DNA of 64,000 bases, taken from positions 32,001-96,000 of IMG/VR virus record IMGVR_UViG_3300046535_002148. The stretch is one strand, 5' to 3'. The DNA is from a virus. The first letter of the stretch is position 1, and each line of letters opens with the position of its first letter. A program made the translations under genes and the position numbers. The notes beneath the pieces are model-generated. The model saw only the letters and a program-made list of their open reading frames with translations, searched no databases and was not told where the DNA came from. Below, piece by piece: positions 14,590 through 60,606 of this stretch.

Positions 14590-14665
14590 GCTGAGGTCTC
14601 CCGGAGTCGTGAGTTGACCCTGGTTTCATCGACTGGCCCCGGCGGGCCAGCAAACTGACCGAGCA

Positions 14666-27758: not shown

Positions 27759-27912
27759 GTTGGGGGTATCGGGCCGTGGGTGGCCCGGCGAAAACGGCAC
27801 CGGGGCCCGGGCGGTCACGGCGCTCGGGCCCCGGTTCGGGGTCGCGCTCTCGGCCGGATCGGCGACCGGGGCGACGGTGGGGATAAAACTCCGGAGCTGG
27901 CTCCGGAGTTCT

Positions 27913-29223: not shown

Positions 29224-29910
29224 TCAGGTCTTGATGATGTGGTACAGCGCGAGGTACGGGTCCTGCGTCGGCACTGCGTTGGGAGTTGCCGATCCGGTCG
29301 TTCCGGTGTTGCTCGGCGTGGTCGAACCGGTGTTGCCCGGTGTCGTGGATGCAGTGGTGCCCGAGACAGTGTGTGTGTGAGCCGAACCAGCGACCGTGAA
29401 GTCCGTGAAAGTACCCGTCGTCTGGCCGACGGGCCGGGTCGTTGCTGTCGGGCTCGCGTCGAAGGCGGTCGCCGCGCTCGCTGGGATCGCATTGCTGCTG
29501 CTCGTGGCGGAGAAGGTGTGCGTGTGCGCGGCCGACGTGTGCGTGTGCGCAGCTGACGTGTGGTCATGCTGGGGCAGCTCGCTGATGGTCAGTGTGTAGC
29601 TCGCAGTGCCACCCACTGCCGCCAAGGCCACGCCGGCCCCCGCGACGGCCGGGTTGTCACCGGCGCCGATCGCAACGCGTTGGCGCATGTCGGGCAGGCG
29701 GAACTCCGTCGCCAGCTCGCCCCCGGTGTTGTACGTCGTGCCGATCACGGCGAACAGCGCCGCGTAGGTGGCCCGCAACTGCTTGGTGCCGTCGCAGATC
29801 AACCAGCCGCTGGGGGCGGTGCTGCCCGCGAACTGCATCATCGCCCCCGGCGGCGTGCTGGCCCCGGGGGGGCTGACCTGGTCCAGGTTCAGGGTGGTGC
29901 CCAATCGCAT
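29224..29910 (-). CDS. Tail-collar domain fibre protein
   Basis: PPGAMMQFAGSTAPSGWLICDG...LFAVIGTTY...FRLPDMR, HxH metal motifs, PYLALYHIIK. Confidence 0.85.
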   Translation of the reverse strand: MRLGTTLNLDQVSPPGASTPPGAMMQFAGSTAPSGWLICDGTKQLRATYAALFAVIGTTYNTGGELATEFRLPDMRQRVAIGAGDNPAVAGAGVALAAVGGTASYTLTISELPQHDHTSAAHTHTSAAHTHTFSATSSSNAIPASAATAFDASPTATTRPVGQTTGTFTDFTVAGSAHTHTVSGTTASTTPGNTGSTTPSNTGTTGSATPNAVPTQDPYLALYHIIKT

Positions 29911-29911
29911 C

Positions 29912-30226
29912 TCAGGCCAGCTGGCCGGAGATCGTCACCTTGTAGCCCTGGGCAGGGCCGGAGCCGCGGTCGACGAAGCGACCGTCACCGTCCTTCCACA
30001 TGGGAAGGACGGTCTCGGTGGCGACGACGTTCTTCTGCAGCTTGAAGCCGTGCGCGTCGGCCGAGGCCTTCCACTCGGCCTTGACCGCGGCGATCACGGC
30101 CTTGCGCTTCTTGTCGGTGTCGAATGCCGCAAGCTCGGCGACCTTGCTGTAGCTCCACATCTGGGGTGCAGGCATGAGGGCGGCGATCCTTTCCTTGATG
30201 GCCTGGATGATGTGCTTCAGATTCAC
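29912..30226 (-). CDS. Hypothetical protein
   Basis: Coupled ORF; shares a WSY...W..A...G pattern with its upstream neighbour. Confidence 0.55.
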   Translation of the reverse strand: MNLKHIIQAIKERIAALMPAPQMWSYSKVAELAAFDTDKKRKAVIAAVKAEWKASADAHGFKLQKNVVATETVLPMWKDGDGRFVDRGSGPAQGYKVTISGQLA

Positions 30227-30723
30227 GGTGTCGTGGTCCCGTCCGGCGACGTCGTCAAATCCGGGAGGGCAGTGGTGACCGGCTGGATGACCTCGCCCAT
30301 GGCCGCAGCGTCGCCGGTGACCTCCTGGATGACACCGGAGGCGTCGATGACGACCTCCAGGCCGTCAGTGCCGGTGCTCGCGCTGGTGTCGACGGCCGGG
30401 TCGGGGAAGGTGACCTCGCCGGTGACGGTGAGCATGAAGGCCTCCGGCTCCACACCGTCGACGGTCTGGTCGTCCAGGACGCCGGTGACCGGTAGCGGCC
30501 ACATCGGGGCGACGGTCTCGATGGTGGTCTCGGGGTTCGGGACGTAGCCGGCGTCGCGGGCCGTCGATTCCCAGTACTGGTGCACGACGGTGGCGAGCTG
30601 GGCTCGCGCTGTCGGGTTGGTCTGCCATTTGGCGGTGGAGAGAAACTCTCCGTAGCTCCACAGCATGACTTCGTATCCCCCTCGGTCCTCGATGGTGAGA
30701 TTCCCTTGTCCTGCGTCGGCCAT
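30223..30723 (-). CDS. Hypothetical protein
   Basis: ATG 30723 overlaps the upstream stop (TGATG). Confidence 0.55.
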   Translation of the reverse strand: MADAGQGNLTIEDRGGYEVMLWSYGEFLSTAKWQTNPTARAQLATVVHQYWESTARDAGYVPNPETTIETVAPMWPLPVTGVLDDQTVDGVEPEAFMLTVTGEVTFPDPAVDTSASTGTDGLEVVIDASGVIQEVTGDAAAMGEVIQPVTTALPDLTTSPDGTTTP

Positions 30724-32027
30724 CAGAAGATCCCTGCCAGTCGCAGGTCGAATGGAGAGCCGACGGACTTCTTCACCTCGATGGCGGCGATGGTGTGCCC
30801 GCCGGCGAAGTTGGTGGTGAAGCCGAGGTTCTTGGCCCCGACTGGGCCGGCGTCGGGGTACCAGGCCGCGTAGGCGGTGTAGTTGCCGGAGCTGTTCGTG
30901 TAGACGATCTCCCCGCCGTTGCCGGCGCTCGGGGTGTAACCGTTCACCGCGTTCCAGACGCGGCTGGTTCCGGCGACGCCGGACCAGTCGGCCATGATCA
31001 CCAGGATGCCGGAGTTCGCCGCGGTGGTGCTCAGGGCCAGCGCGGGCGGCGTCGACCCGGAGCCGGTGGTCAGGGCCGAGGCGCCGGGCACGCCGTTGGC
31101 GAAGCGGGCCACCGCGGTGCCCCAGGTGCCGCCGACGCTGCCGGTCACGGCCTGGGAGTAGGTCCAGGTGGCCCCGGCGGCGACCGGTGCCGACCACAGC
31201 CCGGCGCGGCAGCGCGAGGCGGTGCCCAACTGCTGCTGCTGGGTCCAGGTCACCGCCCCGCCGGTCGGGGTGGCGAAGACCTCGGCGTCCTCCTCGTCCA
31301 TGGACAACGCGACCAGCAGGTCCCCGGCCGCGGCGGTCACCGACACGGTGCGCGGGGAGGTGGTGGCGTTGAACCCGGCGTCGTACTTGCCGAGGTAGGA
31401 CATCGCGCCCCCGCCGCCGACCACCGGGGGGACGTAGTTGACGTGGTCGACGTAACCCGCCGGGGGCACACCGGAGGCCGATTGCAACCACACCAGCGGG
31501 ATGGAGTAGTCCAGGAGGTCCGGGGTCCAGGGGTGCCCGCAGGAGGCGAACTGGGTCCAGTTGGTGCCGTCGGCGCTGTAGTCGTAGTAGAAGTACCCGT
31601 TCGATTCGCGCACCCGCACCCAGTCCGCCGCCGCGACCGGGGCCGAGTCGGTGTAGACGCCACCGGCGATGCGGGTGCGCGCGAACATCGTCGTCCCGGT
31701 GTAGACGACCCCGCAGTAGATGAAGCTGGCGGGCATGTTGGCCAGGTTCACCGCGACCAGCAGGTAGGTGTTGGCCGGCAGCGACGGCCGGTTGGGCACG
31801 TTGTAGAAGATCGAGCTGCCGCGCATGTTGAAACGGCCGTTCGCGTTCACCAACGTGTTGTACGGACTGGCGGAGGCGTCCAGGAGCACCACGCCGTTGG
31901 GCGTCGTGGCCACACCGGAGTAGACGGTCCAGCGACTCAGCGACCCGAAGGAGTCGATGAACTTCTCGATCTTCGGCAGGGTGGAGACGTAGGTGTCGTT
32001 GCGGCCCTCGAGCAGCAGCAGCGTCAC
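30723..32027 (-). CDS. Fibre/receptor-binding-like virion protein
   Basis: GTG 32027 coupled. WVRVRESNGYFYYDYSADGTNW domain is paralogous to 9207-10151; second domain TVSVTAAAGDLLV. Confidence 0.6.
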   Translation of the reverse strand: MTLLLLEGRNDTYVSTLPKIEKFIDSFGSLSRWTVYSGVATTPNGVVLLDASASPYNTLVNANGRFNMRGSSIFYNVPNRPSLPANTYLLVAVNLANMPASFIYCGVVYTGTTMFARTRIAGGVYTDSAPVAAADWVRVRESNGYFYYDYSADGTNWTQFASCGHPWTPDLLDYSIPLVWLQSASGVPPAGYVDHVNYVPPVVGGGGAMSYLGKYDAGFNATTSPRTVSVTAAAGDLLVALSMDEEDAEVFATPTGGAVTWTQQQQLGTASRCRAGLWSAPVAAGATWTYSQAVTGSVGGTWGTAVARFANGVPGASALTTGSGSTPPALALSTTAANSGILVIMADWSGVAGTSRVWNAVNGYTPSAGNGGEIVYTNSSGNYTAYAAWYPDAGPVGAKNLGFTTNFAGGHTIAAIEVKKSVGSPFDLRLAGIF

Positions 32028-33064
32028 AGCGGTTCCTCGGTGTACTCCACCGCGATGGTCCAGCTGCCGCTGGTGCCGATGGCGGTGCCGTTGTTGATCA
32101 CGAGGCCTTCGGCCGCGCCGCGCAGCACCGGGCACTTGGACGGTCGGGTGCCACCGAAGTCCCACGTGACCAGCGTGCCGGTGGTGGCCACCGAGCCACG
32201 CCAGATGCGGACGTTGCCCACCACCGTGCCGGGGGTGGAGGCGACAGTGTACCCGGTGGAGGATGCCGAGCTTGCCGGCTGGGTGCTGTCCACCGCCGCA
32301 ACGTTGGTCGCCGCGGTCGTCCCGCCGGAGTTGGCGGTGCTGCGCTTCTGGACCGTCCAGGTGGTGGTGGTGGCCGCACCGGCGATGCAGAGCACCTCGA
32401 TGCGGGTGACACGAATGAGCTTGGTCGCCGAACCGGACAGGCGGAACACGTCCGAGGCGATCGTGGTGCTCATGTTGGAGACGGAGGCGACGAAGGTGTC
32501 CTTCTGCCCGTCGATGATGGCCACGGTGGGACTGGGGTCGTAGAGGAACGGGCCCTGGGTGATGTAGGCCGCGACGGTTCCCTGCGTGGTGGCAGCCCCG
32601 GTCTGACGCACCCTCACGTACTGGTAGCCCGGGGCGATGTAGTTCCACGCGTACACCCCGTTGGCCGGCAACGTGGTGGTGATGTCGATGCGGGTGCCGT
32701 CGGTGCGGACCGCGTCGATGGGGAACCAGTTGGTGTTGTCCAGGCTGGCCTCGAAGGCGACCGGCACGTTGACCGAACCGCCCGAGGCGAGGATCACGAT
32801 GGTGCCGTTACCAGAGGAACCGATGGCGGTGGACACCGAGATCCCCGAACCGGTCAACGCCCCGGTCACCGTCGCAGCGCCACCGGCGGACCCGGCGAAG
32901 TTGACGTCGAGCATCGTCTTGGACCCGCTGGCGCTGAACGTGGCGATATCGGCGTCACCCACGCCGCCGGGCACCACGACCTGGCGGTGGTCGCCGCCGG
33001 TGACGGTGCGGGTGTCGATGTTCGCACCCGACCCCGGGGTGACTGCAACGGAACCGTCGGCCAT
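32024..33064 (-). CDS. Beta-rich virion protein
   Basis: Gly/Thr/Ser-rich; FEASLDNTNW...YVRVR spike-base-like motif. Confidence 0.55.
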   Translation of the reverse strand: MADGSVAVTPGSGANIDTRTVTGGDHRQVVVPGGVGDADIATFSASGSKTMLDVNFAGSAGGAATVTGALTGSGISVSTAIGSSGNGTIVILASGGSVNVPVAFEASLDNTNWFPIDAVRTDGTRIDITTTLPANGVYAWNYIAPGYQYVRVRQTGAATTQGTVAAYITQGPFLYDPSPTVAIIDGQKDTFVASVSNMSTTIASDVFRLSGSATKLIRVTRIEVLCIAGAATTTTWTVQKRSTANSGGTTAATNVAAVDSTQPASSASSTGYTVASTPGTVVGNVRIWRGSVATTGTLVTWDFGGTRPSKCPVLRGAAEGLVINNGTAIGTSGSWTIAVEYTEEPL

Positions 33065-37021: not shown

Positions 37022-37687
37022 TCAGGAAAAGGCGTTCAGGTGCATGTCCAGGCAAGTGCCGAGCCAATGTCCATATGCCGGGGGCAAGGCCTCCCGCAGC
37101 TCGAAGTGATCGTCGATCCAGTCGATCTGCTTGGCGACCTGGATCTCCTCGACGGTGGCCTTGCCGCCGCCCTCGCCGTACGCCGCAACGTATGGACCGT
37201 CGTAATAGACGCCGTGACGCCAGCCGCGGACCCGGCCGCGGTGCGGGACGTGGGTGGGCTTGTCGGTGGTCCAGTTGCCCAGCTCGAAGTAACGGTGCAT
37301 CAGGACCCCGAGGCCGAACATCTCCCCGCACAGCGTGATGTCCTTGCGCACCGGGGCGCCCTGCACGTTCTCGATGACCCAAGGGATGTCGTAGCGCTGG
37401 AGGAACTCGCGGGTCGGCCCGATCAGGTCGACGTGGTTGTGAGGCCGGTCCTTGTTCGTCCCCTTGGTCGGGGCCGAGTGGATCTGACAGGGCGGGCTGG
37501 CGTGGATGGCGTCGAAGCGGTCGACGAACCAGCTGCTGGACAGGACCTCGAGGGCGTCGGCCTGGATGAACTCGAAGGGGTAGCTCGGGCGCGGTTCGAT
37601 GTCGACGCCGACGACCTCCCAGCCGGCGCGGGCGTAGCCGACCGCCCCTCCCCCGGCACAACAGAACAGATCGAGCAGCCGCGGCAC
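37022..37687 (-). CDS. Compact C5-cytosine DNA methyltransferase
   Basis: LDLFCCAGG (motif I), HASPPCQ (IV), IENV (VI), EALPPAY (X-like). Confidence 0.88.
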   Translation of the reverse strand: MPRLLDLFCCAGGGAVGYARAGWEVVGVDIEPRPSYPFEFIQADALEVLSSSWFVDRFDAIHASPPCQIHSAPTKGTNKDRPHNHVDLIGPTREFLQRYDIPWVIENVQGAPVRKDITLCGEMFGLGVLMHRYFELGNWTTDKPTHVPHRGRVRGWRHGVYYDGPYVAAYGEGGGKATVEEIQVAKQIDWIDDHFELREALPPAYGHWLGTCLDMHLNAFS

Positions 37688-37820: not shown

Positions 37821-37895
37821 CGGACGACGGTATGACGTCGCGTCAGTTCCTCGTGGGGGCGCAGTTTTCTCCCGAGCCGGCTTGGGAGTTTGCTG

Positions 37896-41276: not shown

Positions 41277-42530
41277 TCAGGCAGAAGCGATGACTGCCGC
41301 CATGAGGTTCTGCCACTCCTCGGGGGACATCCCGTTCGCGGCCTCGAATGTGCTTTCCGCGGCCTGCTCGGCCTGCTTCATGACAACGGCGTCGGCATGT
41401 GCCCAGCCCGGTCGTGCGGGCGGGAGAATCAGTGCCGACCCGAGGAACGTGGGGTTGTTGAAATGACGCACGGAGGACCGTTCACGGATGTGGTCGCAGC
41501 CGGCGCCCTTCACCATGTCCATGTAGCCGACGGATTCCCCGCAGCCGCTCTCCCCGGCGCAGGTGACGGTCTCGGAGATGCACTCCATGGACTGCCAGAC
41601 CTTGCCCCATTCCGAGGCCTGCTCGACGAGCTGGGCCTCCTGGGGGTAGAGCCAGGTCCACATCGCCGACTGGGTGCGGATGTAGGGGAACTTCCGTCCG
41701 CCGTCGTCAGCCTTCTCCTGCGGGTAGACCATCTGGGCGCCGACGATGGTGCCGACGACCGACCGGGCCTCGTGCAGCCAGTTGAGCGGACCGTTGAGCA
41801 CTGAGGGCTGCCCGAACTCCAGATCCGCGGTGCTCCACAGGGCGCCGTTGCGGTTGGGCTCCTCGGAGCCGACCAACGCACCCTCGATCCAGAGGTAGTG
41901 CGGGTTGTCGGCCCGTCCGACGTTCTCCACGGGCGCGGCGAGCAGGGTCTTGCCGGCGACCTGGAGGACGACGGGCTGGGTGGTCGAGGTGTCGGGGGTG
42001 GCGTTGACGACGAGCCGCGCGGCTTCCTTGATGGCGGGCAGGTGGACGCCGTCGATGTTGAACACGACGGTGGTGCCCTCCGCGGCCTTCTCGTTCTTGC
42101 CGACGATCCCCTTGGCCCAGGCCGCACCGGCATCCCCGCCCCAGGCGAGCCAGGCCACGTAGCCGGGGGTCTCCTTGCCGGCGTCGCTCCAGCCGTTCTT
42201 CTTGTCCCCGGCGTGGCGGCTGAAGAACGAGTGCATCCGGCGGATCGTGGCCAGAGATACCGCAGTGCCGGCGGCGAGCTGCTTGGCCCGGGCGCGGCCG
42301 ACGTCGGTGAACCCGCCTCCGGCCTTGCCGTCGGCGATCAGCTGCAGCGCACGCCTGGCGGCGCTGCGCACTCCCTCGGGCGGGCTGTAGGTGTCCTCGG
42401 CCTCTTCCGGCAGGACGAGCGCGTCCTCGTCATCGGCGTAGGCGAGCAGTACGTCCATCGCCTGCTCGACGTTGCGCTGCTCGCCGAACTGCTTGGCCTT
42501 CTCGATGAGCTCGTCCCAGTAACCAGTCAT
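41277..42530 (-). CDS. Capsid maturation protease-like protein with extra N-terminal domain
   Basis: PNRNGALW...PLNWLH..VVG...SMEC...FLGSAL..PARPG. N-domain RRMHSFFSRH...VAWLAWGGDAG. Confidence 0.65.
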   Translation of the reverse strand: MTGYWDELIEKAKQFGEQRNVEQAMDVLLAYADDEDALVLPEEAEDTYSPPEGVRSAARRALQLIADGKAGGGFTDVGRARAKQLAAGTAVSLATIRRMHSFFSRHAGDKKNGWSDAGKETPGYVAWLAWGGDAGAAWAKGIVGKNEKAAEGTTVVFNIDGVHLPAIKEAARLVVNATPDTSTTQPVVLQVAGKTLLAAPVENVGRADNPHYLWIEGALVGSEEPNRNGALWSTADLEFGQPSVLNGPLNWLHEARSVVGTIVGAQMVYPQEKADDGGRKFPYIRTQSAMWTWLYPQEAQLVEQASEWGKVWQSMECISETVTCAGESGCGESVGYMDMVKGAGCDHIRERSSVRHFNNPTFLGSALILPPARPGWAHADAVVMKQAEQAAESTFEAANGMSPEEWQNLMAAVIASA

Positions 42531-44305
42531 GCCTGGTCCATCGACTCGTCGTCGTCGTTCGTGGACTCCGAGGCCTTCGTGCTGGGGTTACCGCCCGGCC
42601 CGCGCGGCGCGGCCTTCTTCGCCGGGTTGTTCGCGGTCCTGCCGCCACCGACAGGTCGCCCACCGCGCGCGCCCGAGACGCCCGGGGGTTCTCCGGTGTT
42701 GTTGGGTCCGGGCTTCTGCGCTGCCGGCTTGGCCGGGGTGGCGGGCGGGGGCTTCTCCTCCGGCTGTTTGCCCTCACCGGTCGGACCACCGGGCATCTGA
42801 CCCGGCATCAGGACGGTCTTGAAGACGTCGTCGTAGAACTCCCCTTCGACCTCCAGGCGCATGGCCTCGGTGGCCTGGTCGAGGCCGAAGTACTCGAGGA
42901 TCGTCTCCCGGGAGAGCTCGCGGGATGCGCGCAACGACAGCAGGCCCTGGATCTGGGACTGGTCGAAGGCCAGGGAGATGTTGCGGGGGGTGAAGACCAG
43001 GCTCGGTTCGGCGGTGAAGACGTCGGCGTTCTTCGGGTGCTGGCAGATCGCGTGGGCGATCTCGCGCTCGATGGTCCGCGAGAGCATGTGCCGGCGGTTG
43101 TCCATGACGCGGGCGACGATCTCGCTGATGGTCACCTGGGTCTCGTTGCGCTGGCCGCGGCCACCGACGGTCAGGGTGCCGAGCAGGCGGGACAGGATCT
43201 GGTTGTTGATGACCTCGTACTTGTCCGGCTGCAGAGTGAGGTCTGTTTTGGGCGCGACGATGTCGATGTTGAGGCGGTGGTCGGCGATGATGACCGGCGT
43301 GCGGGCGATGACGCTGTAGTTGTCGCGGAGGTTCTGCAGCTCCTCCGGCCGGGCGGGCATCTTGTCGTCGCCCTTGCGCACCAACAGGATGTAGTTGGCG
43401 TTGCCGATCAGGGCCGCGCGGTCGGACTGCATCAGCTGGGTCTTCATGTCCAGCAGCTGGAAGCAGCTCTTGAGGCGCGGTTCGGGGAACGGCTCGTAGT
43501 CCGCCTTGGTCGCGGTGTGCCGGAAGACCCACTCGGGGTCCATCATCAGCAGGTTGTTGACGTCGACGTTCCAGGTGACGAGCTTGCGGACGTCCTCCGG
43601 CGGCGGGGTGTAGGTGCCGGTGAAGAACGCGATCATCAGCGGGTCGTCGATCTGCTTCTCGAAGGCCCGCTGGTAGTACCCGACCTCCTCGGTGTTGGAG
43701 GCCCAGCACAGCCGGTCCCCACCAAGGGGTCCGAGGTCGACAGGGATGCAGCGCGCGGGGTTCAGCGTGCGCAGCGCGATCGGGCACCAGATGCGGAAGG
43801 TGCGCTTGCGGCGGTTGCCGCCCTTGGTCTTTCCGCGGACGGTGTAGGTCTTCCAACCCCAGATCTTGGCCACGACGGTCTGGGAGATCGTGAACTCCTC
43901 GCGCCACATGGAGCGCACGACCTGGTCGAGGTTGACGTCGCGGGACCACTGGTTGAAGACGTCGGCCTCGTCGCCCTCCTCGGACTCCCACTTCAGTCCC
44001 TGGAAAGCGATGGCCTCGGTGATCTCGGAGACGCCGGAGACGATGGAGTCGTACTTGAGGGCGTGCCGGGCTGCGCGCATCTCGTCGTAAGGGTTGTCCG
44101 GGGGGACGTAGGCGCCCTTGTCGAACATGTTCGAGCGGCTGGTCGCGGCGCGGGCGTTGTCGACCCAACGGGAGAGCTGGGACGCCAGTTGGCGGACCTC
44201 CGCGTTCTCGGTGATCGCGGCCGAGGAGATCTCGGTGGTGTTCCACATCTGCATCGGGCGCCCGGCGACGGGCAGGTCGGAGACGACCTCGATCGGCTCA
44301 GCCAC
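42527..44305 (-). CDS. Portal protein
   Basis: Size, synteny, LSRETILEYFGLD motif, low-complexity Pro/Gly tail. Confidence 0.75.
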   Translation of the reverse strand: MAEPIEVVSDLPVAGRPMQMWNTTEISSAAITENAEVRQLASQLSRWVDNARAATSRSNMFDKGAYVPPDNPYDEMRAARHALKYDSIVSGVSEITEAIAFQGLKWESEEGDEADVFNQWSRDVNLDQVVRSMWREEFTISQTVVAKIWGWKTYTVRGKTKGGNRRKRTFRIWCPIALRTLNPARCIPVDLGPLGGDRLCWASNTEEVGYYQRAFEKQIDDPLMIAFFTGTYTPPPEDVRKLVTWNVDVNNLLMMDPEWVFRHTATKADYEPFPEPRLKSCFQLLDMKTQLMQSDRAALIGNANYILLVRKGDDKMPARPEELQNLRDNYSVIARTPVIIADHRLNIDIVAPKTDLTLQPDKYEVINNQILSRLLGTLTVGGRGQRNETQVTISEIVARVMDNRRHMLSRTIEREIAHAICQHPKNADVFTAEPSLVFTPRNISLAFDQSQIQGLLSLRASRELSRETILEYFGLDQATEAMRLEVEGEFYDDVFKTVLMPGQMPGGPTGEGKQPEEKPPPATPAKPAAQKPGPNNTGEPPGVSGARGGRPVGGGRTANNPAKKAAPRGPGGNPSTKASESTNDDDESMDQA

Positions 44306-44737: not shown

Positions 44738-44905
44738 CTATCCGAAGGCGATCCCGCCGCCTGGCCACTCCTCGCCGTAGGGGTTTGCGCCGACGATGCC
44801 GTCGTTCTTCGCGGTGGCGACCGCGCCCTCGAACCAGGCCCGGAACAGCTGGTCGCGGATGTTGCTCTGGCAGTAGGGGCAGCAGTCCTTCGCGGGGTCG
44901 AGCAC
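44738..44905 (-). CDS. Small Cys-containing protein
   Basis: AGGAG RBS, GTG 44905, CCPYC. Confidence 0.5.
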   Translation of the reverse strand: MLDPAKDCCPYCQSNIRDQLFRAWFEGAVATAKNDGIVGANPYGEEWPGGGIAFG

Positions 44906-44912
44906 GGTGCTC

Positions 44913-45671
44913 CTAGATCGGGGTGCGGGCCAGCGCGAGCATGGCCTGGGCGTAGAGCTGACACACGCGGGACTCGGTGACATTCAGGGCCTCGGCGACG
45001 ACGCCGAAGCTGCAGCCGTCGTAGTGGTGAAGGGTCACGACGATGCGCAGGTTCTCGGCGAGCTTGCCGATGGCGTGGGCGAACAGGACCTTGGCCTCGG
45101 CGATGACCGCAGCGGTTTCCGGGGACTCTGCGCGCTGGTCGTCGATGAGCTCGGCCAGCGGGAGGCGGTCGCCCTTGCGGCCGACGGAGACCTCTTCGTC
45201 CAGCGGGTGGAAGTTGGCCGCGGAGACGTCGCGGGCGATGTCGGAGACCTCTTGCTCGCTGATCTCCAGGGCGCGGGCGAGCTCGCCGCGGTTGGGGGGC
45301 CTGCCGAGTTCGGCCTCCAGGCGCAGGAACGCGCCGTCGATCTCCCGTGCCCGGGCACGCACCGAGCGGGGCACCCAGTCCACGGCGCGCAGGCCGTCGA
45401 CGATCGCACCGCGGATGCGGGTCATGCTGTAGGTCTGGAACTTGATGCCGCGCTCGGGCTCGTAGCGCTCGATCGCATCGAGCAGCCCGAGGTTGCCCCA
45501 GCTGACCAGGTCGTCGCGGTCGACGTGCCCGGGGATGTTGCCGGCGACCATGCGGGCGACGTAGTTGACCAGCGGCTGGTAGTGGCGGGCGATCAGTTCC
45601 CGCAGCGCGGGATCGCCGACCTCCTTGTACCGCGCCCAGATCTCCGGGTCGACGGCTTCCATCATCGACAT
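44913..45671 (-). CDS. Sigma-70 family sigma factor, FliA/WhiG type
   Basis: DDLVSWGNLGLLDAIERYEPERGIKFQTY..TRIRGAIVDGLRAVDWVPRSVR (region 2), ELGRPP (region 3), LNVTESRVCQ (region 4). Confidence 0.93.
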   Translation of the reverse strand: MSMMEAVDPEIWARYKEVGDPALRELIARHYQPLVNYVARMVAGNIPGHVDRDDLVSWGNLGLLDAIERYEPERGIKFQTYSMTRIRGAIVDGLRAVDWVPRSVRARAREIDGAFLRLEAELGRPPNRGELARALEISEQEVSDIARDVSAANFHPLDEEVSVGRKGDRLPLAELIDDQRAESPETAAVIAEAKVLFAHAIGKLAENLRIVVTLHHYDGCSFGVVAEALNVTESRVCQLYAQAMLALARTPI

Positions 45672-47326
45672 CAGACGAACAGGTCCAGGATCGGACCGCC
45701 GTCGTCGGGGCCCTCGATGATCTTCTGGATCGGCGGGATGAACTTGGCCGCGGTGACCATCTTCAAGGCGTCGAGGGTGTGGAAGGAGCCGCCGCCGAAG
45801 ACCCGCCGGGTGCCGTAGGGCGAGCCGTTGTCCTTCTGCACCGTGTAGGTCTGGCCCTGCATCTCCATGATGATCTCGTTGTCGAAGGGCAGCTTGATCT
45901 TCTGCAGGTCGACGTAGTCGTTACGCAGCCAGTCGGTGGAGGCCTCGACGACGTTGCGCATGATGGCGAGGTCGGCCCGGGACTCGCCGTACTTCAGCTC
46001 ACGGTCCTCGAACCCGACCGGGTAGTTCTTGCTGAAGTTGTAGCCGTGGATGCGCGTCCCGATCCCCTCGTAGCGCGACAGCTGGTCGACCAAGGGGAAC
46101 CCGACGCCGGTCTGGTCGATGCCGAAGCTGACCAGGCTGTCGCCGTAGTGCCGGAACAACAGCTCGACGACGAACATCTGGTCGTCGATGTTGATGCGCT
46201 GCAGGTGGACACGGGTCAGGACATGCAGCTCGTCGGAGCCCTTGACCTGCCCGACGATGATGATCTCGCTGGGGTGATTGGTGACGCCGACGTCCATGCC
46301 GCCGTAGAAGGCCTCGTACCCGTGCGGGGCGCCGACCTCCTTGCGGTTGCGGTGCTGGCTCCAGCCGCTGATGTGCTCACCGGGCAGGTGGATCATGTTG
46401 CGGATCGCTTCCTGCCGACGGTCCGCCTCCTTGGGCAACTGCTCGACGATGATCGGGACGCGGGTGTAGACCTCGCTGTTGTAGCGCGAGGACTCCTCGA
46501 GGTCGATGCAGGCGTTGAGCTTGGCCAGTACGAAGACCACGCTGCTGGCGTCGCCGTGCTCGCCGTAGATGTTGCGCTTGTAGTTGATGTGCTGCCGCGA
46601 CCCGCCGAGCTGCTTGATCTTCTCCCGGCGCTCCTGCTCCGACCAGTGCGGGCGCATCATCGCCATGGGCCGGTGGACGGTCCAGGTCACGTCGGCGCTG
46701 GACTTCGAGCCCTCGGTGATCTCGAAGAAGTTGTCACGCACGCCCTTGGGCACGCCGTGGCAGCGCCAGGTGGCGCCGGGCAGGCCGCGGTTGAGGGTGT
46801 CGACGATCTCGGTCCAGCCTGCGGTCGGGTAGTCCTGGGCCTCGTCGAGCTCGATGGAGATGACGTGCTGGCCCTTGACGCCCTTGCCGTCCTTGTTGGG
46901 CAGGCGGGAGACGATCATCGTGCCGTTCTTGAACTTGGTCTGCCAGTGCGGCTGGCGGTTCATGCCGTTGCCCTTGCCGGCGGGCAACATCTCCCGCAGG
47001 ATCCGGGTGCTCAGCAGTCGACCTTCGATCGCGTCGGTGAGCGGCCGGAGGTGGTTCAGTTCCGGGGCGGTGACCAGCATCTTCTGGCCGCTGTAGGTGA
47101 ACGGGAACGAGCAGGACCGCATGGTGATCGACACGGTCTTGCCGGTGGCACGGGCGCCCTGGTCGACCTGGTGGCTGTCGCTGCACCGGTACCAGGAGTG
47201 CTGGAAGGGCCAGGCGCGGTAGCACCCGGAGTCGGTCTCCGGGTCGTACCAGGAGAACTCGGCGAGGTCGAGACCGCTGGGGTCGGTGAGCAGCGCCCAC
47301 AGGTACAGCTCTTCTTCTGACGGCAT
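45671..47326 (-). CDS. Terminase large subunit
   Basis: Walker A ARATGKT, LVTAP, Walker B ELDEAQ, nuclease motifs GGMDVG, IDQTGVG, HTLDAL. ATG 47326. Confidence 0.88.
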   Translation of the reverse strand: MPSEEELYLWALLTDPSGLDLAEFSWYDPETDSGCYRAWPFQHSWYRCSDSHQVDQGARATGKTVSITMRSCSFPFTYSGQKMLVTAPELNHLRPLTDAIEGRLLSTRILREMLPAGKGNGMNRQPHWQTKFKNGTMIVSRLPNKDGKGVKGQHVISIELDEAQDYPTAGWTEIVDTLNRGLPGATWRCHGVPKGVRDNFFEITEGSKSSADVTWTVHRPMAMMRPHWSEQERREKIKQLGGSRQHINYKRNIYGEHGDASSVVFVLAKLNACIDLEESSRYNSEVYTRVPIIVEQLPKEADRRQEAIRNMIHLPGEHISGWSQHRNRKEVGAPHGYEAFYGGMDVGVTNHPSEIIIVGQVKGSDELHVLTRVHLQRINIDDQMFVVELLFRHYGDSLVSFGIDQTGVGFPLVDQLSRYEGIGTRIHGYNFSKNYPVGFEDRELKYGESRADLAIMRNVVEASTDWLRNDYVDLQKIKLPFDNEIIMEMQGQTYTVQKDNGSPYGTRRVFGGGSFHTLDALKMVTAAKFIPPIQKIIEGPDDGGPILDLFV

Positions 47327-50065: not shown

Positions 50066-50767
50066 CTAAGCCAGTCGCGGCAGCTCAGTGGTCTGGCCGC
50101 AGGCCTGGTACATGACCTGCTCACCGAGGTACTTCGTGAAGGCCGGCGGGATCGCCTGCGCCAACTCGACCTTGGACATCCACCAGATGTCCATCGCCTT
50201 GCACCAGAGTTCGAACTCGTTCCTGCCGAGACCCTGCCCACGCCCGTAGACCCCGATCACCGGCGACATGTAGACCACCGGCTTGCCCGAGTGATAGCGA
50301 CGGGTCGGGTACATCGGCGAAGCAGCGTCCTGCCGGGCGTGCTGGCACTCGGGCTGGAACAGGTCGAGGTTGGACTCGAACAGGCGATGCCGCCGGACCC
50401 CCAGCTCGAACATCGAGCCGCACAGCACGATCGGGTCGTACAGCGGGGCTCCGGGCACGTTCTCGATGACATAGGGCCGCGGCAGTCGGAGCCCACGCAG
50501 CGCGTCACGGGTCGCCCCCACCAGGTCGGTGTGCTCCGGACCGGAGAAGGCCTTGAGGCTGGTGTGGACCTTGCAGGGTGGGCTGGCGTGGATGACGTCG
50601 AACTCGTGCCCGTGCTGCCGGATGAACTCCACGGCATCGCCCTGCACGAACTCGAACGGCGGGTAGTTGGGCTGGGGCTCGATGTCGATCCCCACCACCT
50701 CGAAGCCCGCCTGGTGGTACCCCATGGTGGCGCCGCCGGCCCCACAGAACGCATCGAGCAGAAGCAT
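50066..50767 (-). CDS. Compact C5-cytosine DNA methyltransferase
   Basis: LDAFCGAGG, HASPPC, IENV, RRHRLF, QAIPPAF. Confidence 0.88.
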   Translation of the reverse strand: MLLLDAFCGAGGATMGYHQAGFEVVGIDIEPQPNYPPFEFVQGDAVEFIRQHGHEFDVIHASPPCKVHTSLKAFSGPEHTDLVGATRDALRGLRLPRPYVIENVPGAPLYDPIVLCGSMFELGVRRHRLFESNLDLFQPECQHARQDAASPMYPTRRYHSGKPVVYMSPVIGVYGRGQGLGRNEFELWCKAMDIWWMSKVELAQAIPPAFTKYLGEQVMYQACGQTTELPRLA

Positions 50768-52563: not shown

Positions 52564-52942
52564 GGGAGCCCTCCTCGTGGGCCGAGCAGCGTAGCCGAAA
52601 CGTCAGTTCCCTTGCTGGGGAACGAACCCGGGACGGGGGTTCCCGCGATCTCCCTAGGCTCCGTTCATCCCCGTGGGGGGAAAGGGGGGCGCGGCCGAGC
52701 GCAGCGGAGAGCGGAGTGACGAGCGACAGCGAGTCTCGAAGCCTTGGTTGAAGCAGCTGTTGACGACAAAGACGCCCCCCCTCCTGCGCTTCGCTTGGAG
52801 CTGACTCGTCTCGTCGCTGCGCTCCTCAACAAGTCAGTCCCCCCCGGGGGACCGACCTTTGGGCGTGGCGTCCAACGTACGCGACGCGCGACCAGCGATC
52901 TGAGCCGCGACGTTCCCCAGCCAGCTTGGGAGTTTCTTCCGC

Positions 52943-53323
52943 TCATAGCGGAAGCACGCTGACGCCGTACTGCGCGAAGTGTTCGTCGCTGGTGGCGACG
53001 GTGTACCGACCCTCCAGCGCCTGGGCGATGATCAGCCGGTCCCACGGGTCGCGGTGCAGCCACGGCAGACCCTCGTAGCGGACCACGTGGGTGTCCTCGA
53101 TCCCCAGCCTCGTCAGCCCGCCGGCGTGGACCATCTCCAGCAACCGGGGCGGGCGCACCAGCTTCCCGACGGACACTTTGGTGGCGATCTCCAACAGCGA
53201 GATGACCGAGTAGGCGACCTCGGAGGCCGCTTCGATCCGGGCGACAGTCTTCGGGGCCACGTTCCCGACCCCGATGCGCAGCAGTGCCACGGTGTCCAGC
53301 AGCAGGCGTTCGTGACGCGGCAC
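52943..53323 (-). CDS. vapC: PIN-domain (VapC-like) toxin
   Basis: LLLDT...SVISLLEIATK...GKL...HRDPWDRLIIAQA...TSD. Confidence 0.9.
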   Translation of the reverse strand: MPRHERLLLDTVALLRIGVGNVAPKTVARIEAASEVAYSVISLLEIATKVSVGKLVRPPRLLEMVHAGGLTRLGIEDTHVVRYEGLPWLHRDPWDRLIIAQALEGRYTVATSDEHFAQYGVSVLPL

Positions 53324-55712: not shown

Positions 55713-55848
55713 GGGGGACCTCCTTCAACTAGGAGATCGACCTGACGGCCATGGACGACAACAGAACGGCTCAGCGGGCCGCACGCACTCGAAACTGACG
55801 TTTCGTCAGTTCGATCATGCCTCTGACCTGCGATTTCACGGACTCAAA

Positions 55849-55936: not shown

Positions 55937-57715
55937 GTGACCGCCTTCGCCAACATCGGCTTGACCGGCGGCATCACTGGCAGATCCATGCTGCTGTCCC
56001 CCTCGGAGGGCTCGTTGTCCAAGGCTCAACCCGTGCTCACCGGCCAGGCTAGATTGAGCCGCCTTCGGCGCCGCAAGCCGGATCGCGACGAGCGGCTGGG
56101 CGTGTCGTACGCCCGGTACTCCGAGGAGATCCAGGGCTCCATCCCGGAGCAGGAAGGCACCAACCGCGGTGTCGCCGCGGACTTCGACGTGAAGATCGTC
56201 GACTACTTCAGGGACGAGGCGATCTCCCGGTCGATCCAGGAGCGGCCGGGCCTCATGGCGATGCTGATCTACCTGGAGGCGCACCCCGAGGTCGGCTTCA
56301 TCGTCATCAACGAGCTGGAGCGCCTGACCGCCGGCGTGTCCCAGCGCGGCGAGATCACCGAGATCTGCCAGCGTCTCCACGTCACCTTGCTGACGGAGGA
56401 CATGGATGACATCGACCCGTTCGACGAAGAGAAGATGCAGGAGGCCGACAAGCGGGCTGTCGAGGCCAAGGGTGAGGTCCTCAAGGTCCAGCGACGTGTG
56501 CGTCGCACCATGAAGCAGAAGTTCGGTCCGGAGACCCAGCGGGTGTCCATGCGGCCCGCCTTCGGCACCCGGATGAAGCCGCTGCTCGGTCCCGACGGCA
56601 AAGCGCTGCAGCCAGGGATGAAGCTCGTCGATGAGAACGGCCGGACGATCCGTTCCGGTGAGCTGGAGAAGGACCCCAACGAATTTCCGCATCTCCAGGC
56701 CATGTTCAAGATGGCGGACGAGGGAAAGACCGACGCCGAAATCGCGCGGCATCTGACTGACCGCATCCCGACGAAGTCCGGCAACAGGATGTGGCGGGCC
56801 AACACGGTGGCCGGGATTTTGACGAACCCGCTCTACAAGGGCGAGTACACCTGGGGGAAACAGGCCGTCCGCCGGTACAGCAACGGCAAGACCTATCTGG
56901 AGGAACGCCCCGAGGGTGACCCTGGCAGGGTCACCAAGCAGTTGTCGTCGGGGCCGTTCATCCCGGTCGAGCTGTGGGAGCGGGTGAACGAGCGCCGGAA
57001 GGCTCGTCTCGACACGCTGCGCTTCAAGCGGCGTACCCGCGATGTCCAGCTGTTCGACGAGCGCATGTTCTGCCTGGAGTGCGGCTACAAGCTCTACGGG
57101 ATGATGGCCAACGCAGGACGCCCGGAGCCGAAGCGCCGCTACAAGCCGGTCCGGTTCAACTACGCCTGCAACAACGCACGGCGGGGGAACACGACCAAGC
57201 CGGGGTTCAAGCCTCCGTGCGAGAAGTCGCGGATCATGAGCGACTACCACCTGTTCGACGCCCTGGCCGCAGCCCTGGACAGCGATGCCGAGCGGTACGT
57301 CACGGTCTACCGAGCAGCGGTCAACGCCGATCACGTGGTGGCCCGCAAGGCGGAGCTGGAGAAGCACATCCGCGTCGCGGAGGCCAAGCTCGAGCGGGCG
57401 GTCAACCTGCACCTGGACGACCCCGAGATGATGCCGCGGCCGAAGCTGGACAAGCTGAAGGCCGAGACGGCCGAGGAGATCGAAAAGGCCCGCCAGGAGC
57501 TGGCAGGCCTCACGGTTGAGCGGGCGATCAGCGTGCCCGAGCAGGACGAGATGTTGCTGCGCCCCGTGGTCGAGCTGGTGGAGCAGCTACGCGACCTCAC
57601 CACGCCGGTGGAACTTCGCCGTCAGCTGCTTTCCCGAGCCGGCATCGAGCGGTTCTACGTCCACCGTCCACACGTAATGATCGAGTTCAGCAAGGGGTAC
57701 GCCGGCGTCGAGTAG
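55937..57715 (+). CDS. Large serine recombinase (integrase)
   Basis: YARYS catalytic motif, RPGL, ERLT, recombinase domain ILTNPLYKG, Zn-ribbon CLECG...YAC, coiled coil. Start uncertain. Confidence 0.93.
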   Translation: MTAFANIGLTGGITGRSMLLSPSEGSLSKAQPVLTGQARLSRLRRRKPDRDERLGVSYARYSEEIQGSIPEQEGTNRGVAADFDVKIVDYFRDEAISRSIQERPGLMAMLIYLEAHPEVGFIVINELERLTAGVSQRGEITEICQRLHVTLLTEDMDDIDPFDEEKMQEADKRAVEAKGEVLKVQRRVRRTMKQKFGPETQRVSMRPAFGTRMKPLLGPDGKALQPGMKLVDENGRTIRSGELEKDPNEFPHLQAMFKMADEGKTDAEIARHLTDRIPTKSGNRMWRANTVAGILTNPLYKGEYTWGKQAVRRYSNGKTYLEERPEGDPGRVTKQLSSGPFIPVELWERVNERRKARLDTLRFKRRTRDVQLFDERMFCLECGYKLYGMMANAGRPEPKRRYKPVRFNYACNNARRGNTTKPGFKPPCEKSRIMSDYHLFDALAAALDSDAERYVTVYRAAVNADHVVARKAELEKHIRVAEAKLERAVNLHLDDPEMMPRPKLDKLKAETAEEIEKARQELAGLTVERAISVPEQDEMLLRPVVELVEQLRDLTTPVELRRQLLSRAGIERFYVHRPHVMIEFSKGYAGVE

Positions 57716-57823
57716 CGCCTTCTGCGCCTTGTGGATCGCGACCGCCTCGGCGATGCGGTCGATCTGGGTGGAGCTCAACCGCTCCTCGCCCCACATGACC
57801 CTTCGGTTCGGGGTCTCGTCCAT
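57587..57823 (-). CDS. Small protein overlapping the integrase 3' end (possible directionality factor)
   Basis: TGATG-coupled to the Xis-like gene; convergent overlap with the integrase. Confidence 0.35.
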   Translation of the reverse strand: MDETPNRRVMWGEERLSSTQIDRIAEAVAIHKAQKALLDAGVPLAELDHYVWTVDVEPLDAGSGKQLTAKFHRRGEVA

Positions 57824-58089
57824 CACTCGAACTCCATCTGGCCCTCGCAGGTCCACGCCGCGGGGGTCTTCTCCTTGGTCTCGGTCACGAGGTTGTCCTC
57901 GATGAACCGGGCGACGTCGACCGGCCGGAGCCGGATCGACCGCCCGATCCTGACGTGCTGGAGCCGGCCGTCCTCGACCAATCGGTAGACCCCGCGGGCA
58001 CTGATCGAGTACAGGGCCGCGACGTCCTTGATCGACAGAAGGACCATGTCCTCCTCAGCGACCTCGGGGGTCTCGACGGTGCTGACCAC
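57823..58089 (-). CDS. Excisionase-like (HTH_17/MerR-like) DNA-binding protein
   Basis: LLSIKDVAALYSISARGVYRLVEDGRLQHVRIGRSIRL. Confidence 0.85.
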   Translation of the reverse strand: MVSTVETPEVAEEDMVLLSIKDVAALYSISARGVYRLVEDGRLQHVRIGRSIRLRPVDVARFIEDNLVTETKEKTPAAWTCEGQMEFE

Positions 58090-58306
58090 GCAGAGCTCCT
58101 CGGATGAAGTGATGCGACTGTCGCTTCACTTTCTGGGGCGGGACGAGGCCCGGGCCCTCGGCAGTACGGCCCGGACCTCTGTCACCCGCATGTCCGTGGA
58201 GGACGGACGTCTCCGACGCTAGGTCGAGGCCCAGGAGCCTGGCGAACGTCCTCGGTGAAGTCCGCGCCAGAAACTCCCGGGCTGGCTTGGGAGTTCTCAG
58301 GGGGAC

Positions 58307-59742: not shown

Positions 59743-60135
59743 CTAGCCCACGAAGTCGTGCGCCAGCACGAAGGCGTCGGCATCCCAGGCGCTGTGCCCG
59801 CCCTCGGCCTCGAAGACCACCCAGTCCCCCGGTTGGGCCTGGTGGACGCGGGCGTCGGGGCCGGTGAGGGTCATCGGGACCTCGGTGGCGAAGGCCTCCA
59901 TGACCAGACCCCGCCGGCTGATGGTCATCGTGACCACCGAGAGGTCGACGAAGTCGCGGAAGTTGCCCTCGTCGGTGGGCAGGTCCAGACAGGTCCGGAT
60001 GCACTGTTCACGGCCCCCGTCGATGGCCAGGTAGCCGCAGGGGCACATCTGGGACTCCTTCGGCGTCTCGGAGACCAGCTCGGTCAGGCAGCGCCCGCAA
60101 CGGGCCCGGTTCACGATGATTCGGTGAGCGCTCAT
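59743..60135 (-). CDS. Zn-ribbon phage protein
   Basis: NRARCGRC...CPCGYLAIDGG. Confidence 0.65.
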   Translation of the reverse strand: MSAHRIIVNRARCGRCLTELVSETPKESQMCPCGYLAIDGGREQCIRTCLDLPTDEGNFRDFVDLSVVTMTISRRGLVMEAFATEVPMTLTGPDARVHQAQPGDWVVFEAEGGHSAWDADAFVLAHDFVG

Positions 60136-60606
60136 CCTCAGTCATCGGCGCCGGACAGCCAACATTTTGGTTACGCTCAGTGAACACCGCAGGTCCGAGC
60201 CTTGATCAACTGACCCGCGACATAGAACGTTCTACAACTTATCGACGCCGCAACATGTTTGCTGTGCCACTAACCCGTTGACCTGTGGATATCGTTCCGA
60301 AGCTGGCTCGGGAGATCGGAACCTGTGGCGCACGACTCAATCAGAACGTCGAATTGGACGCAACTATCACCAACATTCGGTAAAGCCCAGATGGTCCGCA
60401 GGTAACTTCTGATGGTGCCGAGGTTTGACCCAGCCTTGCGCTGTGTAATCAGTAAAGGACCACCGGGCTGTTCCGCAGACGCCCCTCCGGCCCATGCCCT
60501 CCAGGTATGCCGTCGGAGCGCCTGGTGGCAAAGCCGGGGGGCGACGCGGCGGATCCGGCCAGCAAGGGCCAGGCCCGAGACGCCTCCCGAGTCCCTGGAG
60601 CGACCG

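Follow-up and report, generated by a model that had tools for sequence, protein, structure and literature searches.

A FliA/WhiG-family sigma factor gene joined to the large terminase gene of a phage, with replacements at the WhiG residues that contact c-di-GMP

Identification of a sigma factor gene at the terminase junction

We analysed a 64,000-nucleotide stretch of the IMG/VR virus record IMGVR_UViG_3300046535_002148 (134,639 bp, CheckV 92% complete, 67% G+C), which corresponds to bases 32001-96000 of the record and is referred to here as the window. Within the packaging genes of this virus, which looks like a temperate actinophage, lies an open reading frame (ORF) that encodes a FliA/WhiG (sigma-28) family sigma factor (Table 1). 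An earlier note, made from the letters alone, had described it as an intact group-3 sigma, and this is borne out by the Pfam domains of the 252-residue product, Sigma70_r2 (residues 27-99, E 7e-15), r3 (110-185, 1.7e-6) and r4 (200-247, 1.2e-8), that is, by the presence of regions 2, 3 and 4 without region 1.1. The protein scored 201.3 bits against the NCBIfam FliA_WhiG model TIGR02479, above the cut-off of 189.6, with the same family call in a genome-wide scan, and 248.5 bits against the WhiG equivalog NF004935, under the cut-off of 343. Among solved structures, the closest is WhiG in the RsiG-(c-di-GMP)2-WhiG complex (6pfv, E 3.6e-63; 6pfj, E 3.6e-62), c-di-GMP being cyclic di-GMP. When the full record was scanned with the FliA/WhiG and Sigma70_r2 models, exactly one sigma-70-family gene was found. 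Its G+C content at third codon positions (GC3, 0.94) is similar to that of the adjoining genes.

No DNA match was found in INPHARED, where the top protein identity was 33%. In four metagenome runs from soil or rhizosphere, contigs carry exact copies of the sigma region; one of these runs is perhaps the source sample. The sequencing runs with this DNA were soil and rhizosphere metagenomes only, with no isolate or RNA run listed. Three contig joints were rejected as variants without the sigma gene, their sides being short (21-31 letters) and their depth low.

The sigma gene starts within the stop codon of the gene upstream, at a TGATG overlap. That gene could be identified as a large terminase (TerL) by its predicted fold: an AlphaFold2 model (23 homologues, pLDDT 72.6) gave Foldseek matches to T4 gp17, D6E, HK97 TerL and Sf6 gp2 (E 1.9e-13 to 1e-10), while by sequence there was a lone PHROG match (E 1.8e-5), with no Pfam match and no PDB match with the terminase profile. 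As head genes also adjoin, the location in a packaging module, as previously proposed, is confirmed. Of the translational coupling proposed along with it, the overlap itself is certain, with one base common to both ORFs, and the coupling is a probable consequence. No Shine-Dalgarno-like run is visible upstream of the sigma ATG, which would fit a termination-reinitiation coupling of sigma to TerL. A scan around the sigma gene gave 0 promoter-like sites and 2 terminator-like sites (2.4 expected), and folding of the region downstream of the next, 55-aa ORF gave z = -0.15; the lack of flanking promoter or terminator signals fits co-transcription of sigma with the packaging genes.

Replacement of c-di-GMP and sigma-2-side RsiG contact residues

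According to the available sections of two structural papers, the c-di-GMP dimer is contacted in WhiG by Lys57, Gly61 and Arg62 (Gallagher et al., PMC7005675; Schumacher et al., PMC8325347), which are the same three residues that the earlier note had correctly named. At position 61 any side chain would clash with c-di-GMP (PMC7005675). The L50 of WhiG inserts into a hydrophobic RsiG pocket, and other RsiG contacts of the Streptomyces venezuelae WhiG are made by the N-terminal Pro26 and Leu29 (PMC7005675 section 14).

Aligning the phage sigma (residues 10-247) to the WhiG of the complex, 6pfv, with HMMER placed these contacts at N36 (K57), R40 (G61) and M41 (R62), all three within the region 2.1 helix PLVNYVARMV; both the position of this helix and the change of all three contacts thus agree with what had been read from the letters. 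L50 is replaced by R29 and R43 reads A22, while the sigma-2-side positions H51 and Y58 are unchanged. The alignment begins at phage residue 10, chain residue 31, and the places of P26 and L29 (E5 and D8) come before the aligned part; the N-terminal extension of cellular WhiGs is absent. The rest of region 2 is WhiG-like, again as previously noted. On the sigma-4 side, I223, T235 (T213), L236 (L214) and Y239 (Y217) are kept, with changes at E240 (D218), L242 (C220) and T232 (Ile).

The residues that read DNA are a different matter. In the Pseudomonas aeruginosa sigma-28 open complex, as described in sections 19-21 of PMC12784957, Q228 and S224 read the -35 element, R97 the extended -10, and R80, Y76 and D87 the -10. 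We mapped these residues by motif onto Q238 and S234, R102, and R85, Y81 and D92 of the phage sigma, respectively, and all six are invariant across the phage clade described below and the cellular WhiGs (alignment A1). Since these residues are unchanged, the phage sigma should read sigma-28/WhiG-type promoters.

A rare clade that shares the change

Of 8000 candidates scored in a homologue search of 5.8 billion proteins, 6601 were relatives at E<=0.001. Six proteins of 248-251 aa and 53-63% identity (P0002-P0007) group with the query, the 7 members being 52-63% identical, and the next matches are cellular WhiG-type proteins of 257-362 aa with at most 50% identity. P0006 (441 bits) alone stands for the whole clade in a library of 1.84 billion representatives, where the next match reaches 267 bits. 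The clade is monophyletic (SH-aLRT 100) with a long stem, and its sister is the pair P0013/P0117 (95-97).

None of the 7 members keeps K57, G61, R62 or L50. The K57 place reads N, L, S, N, A, V and L, the R62 place M, M, M, Q, L, L and M, the L50 place R, T, G, I, N, T and T, and the G61 place is Arg in 7/7. Among the 111 top cellular matches listed, K57 and R62 are kept in all 111, and G61 and L50 in 108 each. The 30 best copies from Actinomycetota genomes, of which 7 rows stem from genomes flagged unpublished, all keep K57, G61 and R62, with L50 in 27, and the corresponding counts for 80 loci from a metagenome scan, all with no more than 48% identity to the phage sigma and none on the contigs of P0002-P0007, are 78 (K57), 61 (G61), 76 (R62) and 49 (L50). 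The sister pair P0013/P0117 retains K/R, G, R and L at the places of K57, G61, R62 and L50, so the loss of the contacts is derived on the clade stem. Being shared by the whole of this rare clade and derived with respect to its sister, the change goes beyond the accident of a single sequence. Two of the four positions drift as expected of an abandoned interface, and the new Arg at the G61 place is fixed. Across the 7 proteins there are 71 invariant columns.

Two other clade members probably lie on terminase-bearing contigs as well, judging from equal lengths: the longest contig is of 12,499 bp for both P0005 and the terminase P0121, and of 9,926 bp for both P0004 and the terminase P0210. A clade-specific pattern scan of genome contigs found no prophage copy and retrieved mostly FliA genes of Selenomonadaceae, Planctomycetota and Armatimonadia, and single-protein scans of viral contigs for neighbours of P0002-P0007 gave no match.

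Relation to WhiG1 and WhiG2

Actinobacterial homologues have been split into WhiG1 and WhiG2 (Denis et al. 2026 preprint, 10.64898/2026.01.14.699351). In the available portions of that preprint, WhiG1 is linked to flagellar clusters, does not conserve K57/G61/R62 and is not bound by RsiG in two-hybrid assays, and WhiG2 is regulated by RsiG. We found three Actinomycetota metagenome-assembled genomes (MAGs) that carry two FliA/WhiG copies each; their weaker copies (rows L193-L195) have no contact residues, and the weaker copy adjoins flagellin, FliD and rod genes. Identity of the phage sigma to such flagellar-cluster copies is 34-39%; it is 41% to the strong copies that these genomes also carry, and reaches 49% with other copies bearing the contact residues. 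Its own gene is neither in nor beside a flagellar cluster, its neighbours being TerL and head genes.

In the tree, the phage clade lies outside the 33-row WhiG2-type group. Approximately unbiased (AU) tests, with WhiG1 and WhiG2 assigned independently of the named reference sets of the preprint, gave p = 0.61 for union with the flagellar-cluster rows and p = 0.17 for union with the WhiG2-type rows (nested viral rows L003 and L006 included). The phylogeny against FliA and WhiG that the earlier note had proposed gives a derived clade of 7 members with a sister that keeps the contacts, its deep placement being compatible with either WhiG1 or WhiG2.

One explanation is that nothing was escaped, the lineage never having been under RsiG control or its host having no RsiG, and that region 2.1 reflects drift or another partner, for example a FlgM-like anti-sigma factor, the adjacent 55-aa Cys-rich ORF or a different contact with the core polymerase. 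The WhiG1-type grouping, which the AU test does not reject, and the WhiG1 homologues naturally without K57/G61/R62 (rows L193-L195) are in line with this; yet all of K/R-G-R-L is present in the sister pair, and identity is highest to copies with RsiG-type residues, not to flagellar-cluster copies. The Arg at the G61 place can be read in favour of this explanation, as its invariance in the clade, together with its presence in 5/8 other phage sigmas from the 64 viral loci described below, suggests a new constraint and not plain loss, whereas the variation of the K57 and L50 places within the clade is what an abandoned interface would show. As for the partners, no homologue was found for the 55-aa ORF, which is therefore not a conserved one. 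On balance we consider this explanation unlikely.

As a separate observation, an uncultured Actinomycetota MAG has, at locus L163 (G002:C1:506098-518742), a second FliA/WhiG copy near flagellin, FliD and rod genes and an EAL-HDOD protein. The arrangement resembles a WhiG1-type locus, the EAL-HDOD protein being a c-di-GMP phosphodiesterase-like neighbour.

An accessory insertion between terL and the head genes

At E<=1e-10, 789 homologues of the terminase were found, and some of their contigs are 130-138 kb long. In most of the 64 viral loci obtained with the terminase profile, the gene order is HTH protein, TerL, orf124, 592-aa protein and 417-aa protein. The counterpart of the first in the window, of 197 aa, is possibly the small terminase, and the 592-aa protein, which gave neither a Pfam nor a PHROG match, is in the portal position, a label given by synteny only. 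A sigma-28-like gene was found near TerL (within 10 kb, flanks covered) in 8/64 of these loci, at varying positions and on either strand, and never between terL and orf124; in a second set, it was within 10 kb of TerL in 5/39 sigma-bearing loci.

Five large relatives (104-138 kb, 84-100% complete) had no FliA_WhiG or Sigma70_r2 match (0/5). In two of them that were compared in full (G405 and G407), 36 and 34 of 159 crude gene calls are shared at about 42% identity, and the orf124 homologue directly follows TerL with a gap of 300-400 bp; here that gap holds sigma and the 55-aa ORF. Sigma is therefore an accessory insertion at the junction of terL and the head genes, with a patchy distribution. 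The 55-aa ORF came in together with it as one accessory cassette. Among the 5.8 billion proteins this ORF matched nothing but itself (1 of 1 candidates), and tblastn gave no match in any of the loci obtained.

Such a distribution, and the score under the WhiG equivalog cut-off, could also be taken as signs of a captured host gene that is decaying or inactive, or of a decoy that merely competes for core polymerase. We regard this as very improbable, because the frame is intact with GC3 like its neighbours, 71 columns are invariant among 7 proteins that are only 52-63% identical, all the sigma-28 DNA-contact residues are kept, and identical copies occur on contigs of the four metagenome runs.

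Promoters and repeated motifs in the phage genome

The promoter consensus is T(A/C)AA-N16-GCCGATAA for WhiG2 and CTCA-N16-17-GCCGAACT for WhiG1, as given in the available part of 10.64898/2026.01.14.699351. Over the whole genome, the strict WhiG2 pattern occurred 6 times (4.2 expected) and the strict WhiG1 pattern 7 times (8.8 expected), both mostly within genes, and a looser sigma-28 scan gave 130 sites against 105 +/- 9, which we judged to be at chance level, the shuffles behind these expectations preserving dinucleotides only approximately and ignoring codon structure. The -10-like word is intergenic 35 of 163 times, the same fraction as intergenic DNA makes up of the genome, and no sigma-28-type motif rose above chance in 7-10-mer enrichment, -35/-10 dyad counts or -10 word counts. 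There is, then, no excess of sigma-28/WhiG-type promoters in the 134.6-kb phage genome. The best sigma-28-like site, CACA-N16-GTCGATAA, matches the -10 at 7/8 positions, has a DUF7695 gene 111 nt downstream and adjoins a copy of the palindrome described below; it is a lone site, compatible with chance. Other -10-like words upstream of phage genes are GTCGATAG at about 28502 on the minus strand and CGATGAAA at 14631 and 38916.

These results bear on the claim that the sigma drives the late promoters of the phage, and they do not support it: besides the lack of a promoter excess, the gene is inside the late operon and not ahead of it, and the five large relatives have no sigma. In a related explanation, it would be a dedicated late-gene or self-amplifying sigma serving a few phage promoters, for which insulation from an anti-sigma factor is a mere prerequisite and host genes are not the purpose. 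Its gene does lie within the packaging module, and the sigma-28-like genes near TerL in the 8/64 and 5/39 loci frequently precede it on the same strand, as is usual for late activators, but here the protein would be translated along with the late proteins and not earlier. The same head module must be expressible without a sigma, since the five relatives have none. A few -10-like words ahead of phage genes (GTCGATAA, GTCGATAG and CGATGAAA) could be its targets, although no promoter motif is repeated and the counts stay at chance level, and no new promoter specificity is evident because the DNA-reading residues are the same as in cellular WhiG. We therefore hold this explanation to be somewhat unlikely.

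Three families of repeated words were observed in the same searches. The 20-bp near-perfect palindrome CTCCSRAGCYRGCTYSGGAG has about 17 sites over the record, mostly intergenic and often flanked by AAA/TTT, and could be an operator family or a set of bidirectional hairpins. The intergenic word GGAACTGACGTTTYCG is extended in one of its copies to the full palindrome CTGACGTTTCGTCAG. The word GTTTCCGCT stands just ahead of start codons, at 0-25 nt, often with TAGNNT after it, and may represent leaderless-type early promoters or operator half-sites. We found no link between any of these palindromes or words and the sigma; hence, of the self-contained circuit with a promoter motif and two operator families that the earlier note had assembled, the palindromes and motifs are real and none is tied to the sigma.

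Other features of the phage genome

The genes of the record include a large serine recombinase, Xis-like HTH_17 proteins, a DnaB-primase with an intein, a ligase, a Ro/TROVE protein and a SpoVS-like protein. The phage is probably temperate, given the serine recombinase and an excisionase-like HTH_17 protein, with two more HTH_17 proteins towards the right end. A Pfam scan of 128 phage proteins (E<=1e-4), for which it was not checked whether Pfam has an RsiG model, showed no GGDEF, EAL or anti-sigma domain. The 104-aa protein with the SpoVS match is a second development-linked gene. The intein that interrupts the 1247-aa Toprim-DnaB primase-helicase has HNH and LAGLIDADG domains, and in relatives the terminase homologues are also often split or enlarged by inteins (P0121, P0164 and P0174-P0177; split matches L262, L275, L286, L290 and L297). 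Two paralogous DNA methyltransferases (phrog_363) lie in and beside the structural module, and several tRNA-type GTTCGAAT T-arms occur outside the window, within which ARAGORN found no tRNA.

Table 1 Location of the sigma factor gene, its neighbours and other features; positions refer to the window unless the record is named
Feature	Position	Strand	Basis or remark
FliA/WhiG-family (sigma-28, group 3) sigma, 252 aa	44913..45671	-	ATG start; frame intact; Pfam, NCBIfam, PDB
Region 2.1 helix PLVNYVARMV, residues 33-42	45546..45575	-	Pairs with PLVKYVAGRV, 6pfv chain residues 54-63 (HMMER)
R29 codon, place of L50 of S. venezuelae WhiG	45585..45587	-	Alignment to 6pfv
TGATG overlap of TerL stop (TGA) and sigma start (ATG)	45669..45673	-	Minus strand ...GTC TGA TG TCG ATG...; base 45671 common
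Large terminase, 551 aa from internal ATG	45671..47326	-	Fold match; mechanical ORF to 47515
Orphan ORF, 55 aa, CCPYC motif	44738..44905	-	GTG start 8 nt past sigma stop, GGAG ahead
Conserved head-module protein orf124, 124 aa	44298..44672	-	tblastn; right after TerL in relatives
Conserved 592-aa protein, portal position	42527..44305	-	Gene order in related viral loci (synteny label only)
HTH_3 protein, 197 aa	47586..48179	-	Pfam HTH_3; synteny; ahead of TerL in most relatives
Best sigma-28-like site	~60246	-	Lone site
DUF7695 gene	59743-60135		Downstream of the site above
CTCCSRAGCYRGCTYSGGAG palindromes	27889-27908, 37869-37888, 52913-52932, 58274-58293, 60295-60314 and ~12 more		
GGAACTGACGTTTYCG words	6162, 49878, 52606, 55795; record 107900		Full palindrome CTGACGTTTCGTCAG at 55795
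GTTTCCGCT words	28491, 52938; record 123498, 125318, 127516, 132497, 132996, 133910		Palindrome at 52938-52952
Large serine recombinase	55937-57715	+	
HTH_17 (excisionase-like) protein	57823-58089	-	
DNA methyltransferase	37022-37687	-	phrog_363, E 1.6e-37
DNA methyltransferase	50066-50767	-	phrog_363, E 5e-36
Toprim-DnaB primase-helicase, 1247 aa	record 29263-33006 (window to 1006)	-	
SpoVS-like protein, 104 aa	record 100816-101130	-	Pfam E 1.3e-8; outside window
Ro60/TROVE-domain protein	record 107968-109560	+	Outside window
GTTCGAAT T-arms	record 105852, 114735, 114880, 128058		Outside window

A sigma factor possibly insensitive to RsiG and perhaps directed at the host

We tentatively favour, at a little short of an even chance, the reading that the phage encodes a sigma-28-type factor that is insensitive to RsiG and c-di-GMP, is made late, and is more likely aimed at WhiG/FliA-type promoters of the host than at phage late genes. 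In this scheme, sigma and the 55-aa ORF are inserted as a cassette between TerL and the next head gene, and sigma would be translated by coupling to TerL and therefore be produced late in infection. With the host core RNA polymerase it would read TAAA/TCAA-N15-17-GCCGATAA promoters. As the sigma-2 surface on which RsiG and the bridging c-di-GMP dimer dock is replaced (K57N, G61R, R62M, L50R and R43A) and the N-terminal extension is absent, RsiG with c-di-GMP would be unable to sequester the phage sigma, which would be active once made. Its likeliest targets would be the WhiG/FliA regulon of the host (development, pili or motility, c-di-GMP turnover), and possibly a few phage sites, because there is no promoter enrichment in the phage and related phages manage without a sigma. 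What the sequences show directly is the family of the protein, the clade-wide residue changes, the preserved DNA-reading residues, the site of insertion and the patchy distribution, whereas late expression, insensitivity to RsiG and host targets are inferred. By analogy, the WhiG1 homologues support the proposed insensitivity, as they have no contact residues and are unbound by RsiG in the two-hybrid assays reported in the available part of the preprint (10.64898/2026.01.14.699351).

Several points weigh against this reading. Some residual RsiG binding is conceivable because most of the sigma-4-side contacts are retained. G61 and R62 are conserved also in FliA of Selenomonadaceae, of a Desulfobacteraceae row and of an Armatimonadia row, which come from phyla not known to have RsiG, so these residues may serve another role and their loss may mean something besides escape from an anti-sigma factor. 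A sigma made late has little time to reprogramme the host before lysis, and the reading presupposes that the host has RsiG. The sigma-28-like genes found near packaging genes in other loci would fit a role in late transcription too, and the AU tests reject neither a WhiG1-type nor a WhiG2-type origin of the clade. Finally, the five relatives without sigma are distant: the overlap amounts to 34-36 of 159 proteins, with identities of about 42%.

A stronger form of the same idea is that a temperate actinophage domesticated WhiG and rewrote its RsiG surface, giving an always-on WhiG that fires the host regulon, with its sporulation septation, pili or flagella, and c-di-GMP enzymes, regardless of the second messenger. 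We consider this form possible but doubtful. If true, it would provide a natural anti-sigma-escape variant and a case of phage takeover of actinobacterial development.

The RsiG-(c-di-GMP)2-WhiG switch is the late checkpoint of Streptomyces development and serves as a model for how a second messenger controls a sigma factor. A WhiG-like protein from nature in which exactly the c-di-GMP and sigma-2-side RsiG contacts are replaced and the DNA-reading residues are intact offers a ready test of which contacts matter. Sporulation, motility or c-di-GMP signalling of soil actinobacteria could come under phage influence if the phage sigma acts on host promoters; a mere late-gene sigma would still be an example of a captured host sigma insulated from the host anti-sigma factor.

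Comparison with known systems

Searching the full-text literature for a WhiG/FliA-type sigma encoded by actinophages gave no such paper. Some late activators are comparable in their position: the RinA/ArpU-type activators of siphophages of Gram-positive hosts, on which late transcription depends, are small proteins resembling region 4 whose genes lie upstream of terS. The phage sigma is, like them, a sigma-like regulator at the packaging module, but it is a full three-domain sigma-28 encoded downstream of terL and absent from related phages.

Phage-borne sigma factors of development or dormancy, distinct from the classical middle and late sigmas, are known as the sporulation-sigma homologues of Bacillus phages (Schwartz et al., 10.1101/2021.11.12.468384), and a term search in the available text of that paper found neither WhiG nor FliA. 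As far as that text goes, the Bacillus phage proteins are SigF/SigG-like and belong to another host phylum, while here the sigma is of the FliA/WhiG type and its anti-sigma interface is rewritten. The present case would thus extend phage-carried developmental sigmas from the SigF/G-like genes of Bacillus to Actinomycetota and to the sigma-28 family.

With the WhiG1 clade of 10.64898/2026.01.14.699351, as described in the available portions of the preprint, the phage sigma has in common that it is without the K57/G61/R62 set, and grouping with the flagellar-cluster copies is not rejected. It differs in lying outside a flagellar cluster, in its low identity (34-39%) to the flagellar-cluster copies and in the WhiG2-type residues of its sister pair. 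The nearest structural model is the S. venezuelae WhiG (6pfv/6pfj; PMC7005675), with which the phage sigma shares the three-domain group-3 architecture, the DNA-reading residues and most of the sigma-4 contacts to RsiG. Unlike that WhiG, it has K57, G61, R62, L50 and R43 replaced and no N-terminal extension, it scores under the WhiG equivalog cut-off, and it is borne by a phage, fused into the terminase operon.

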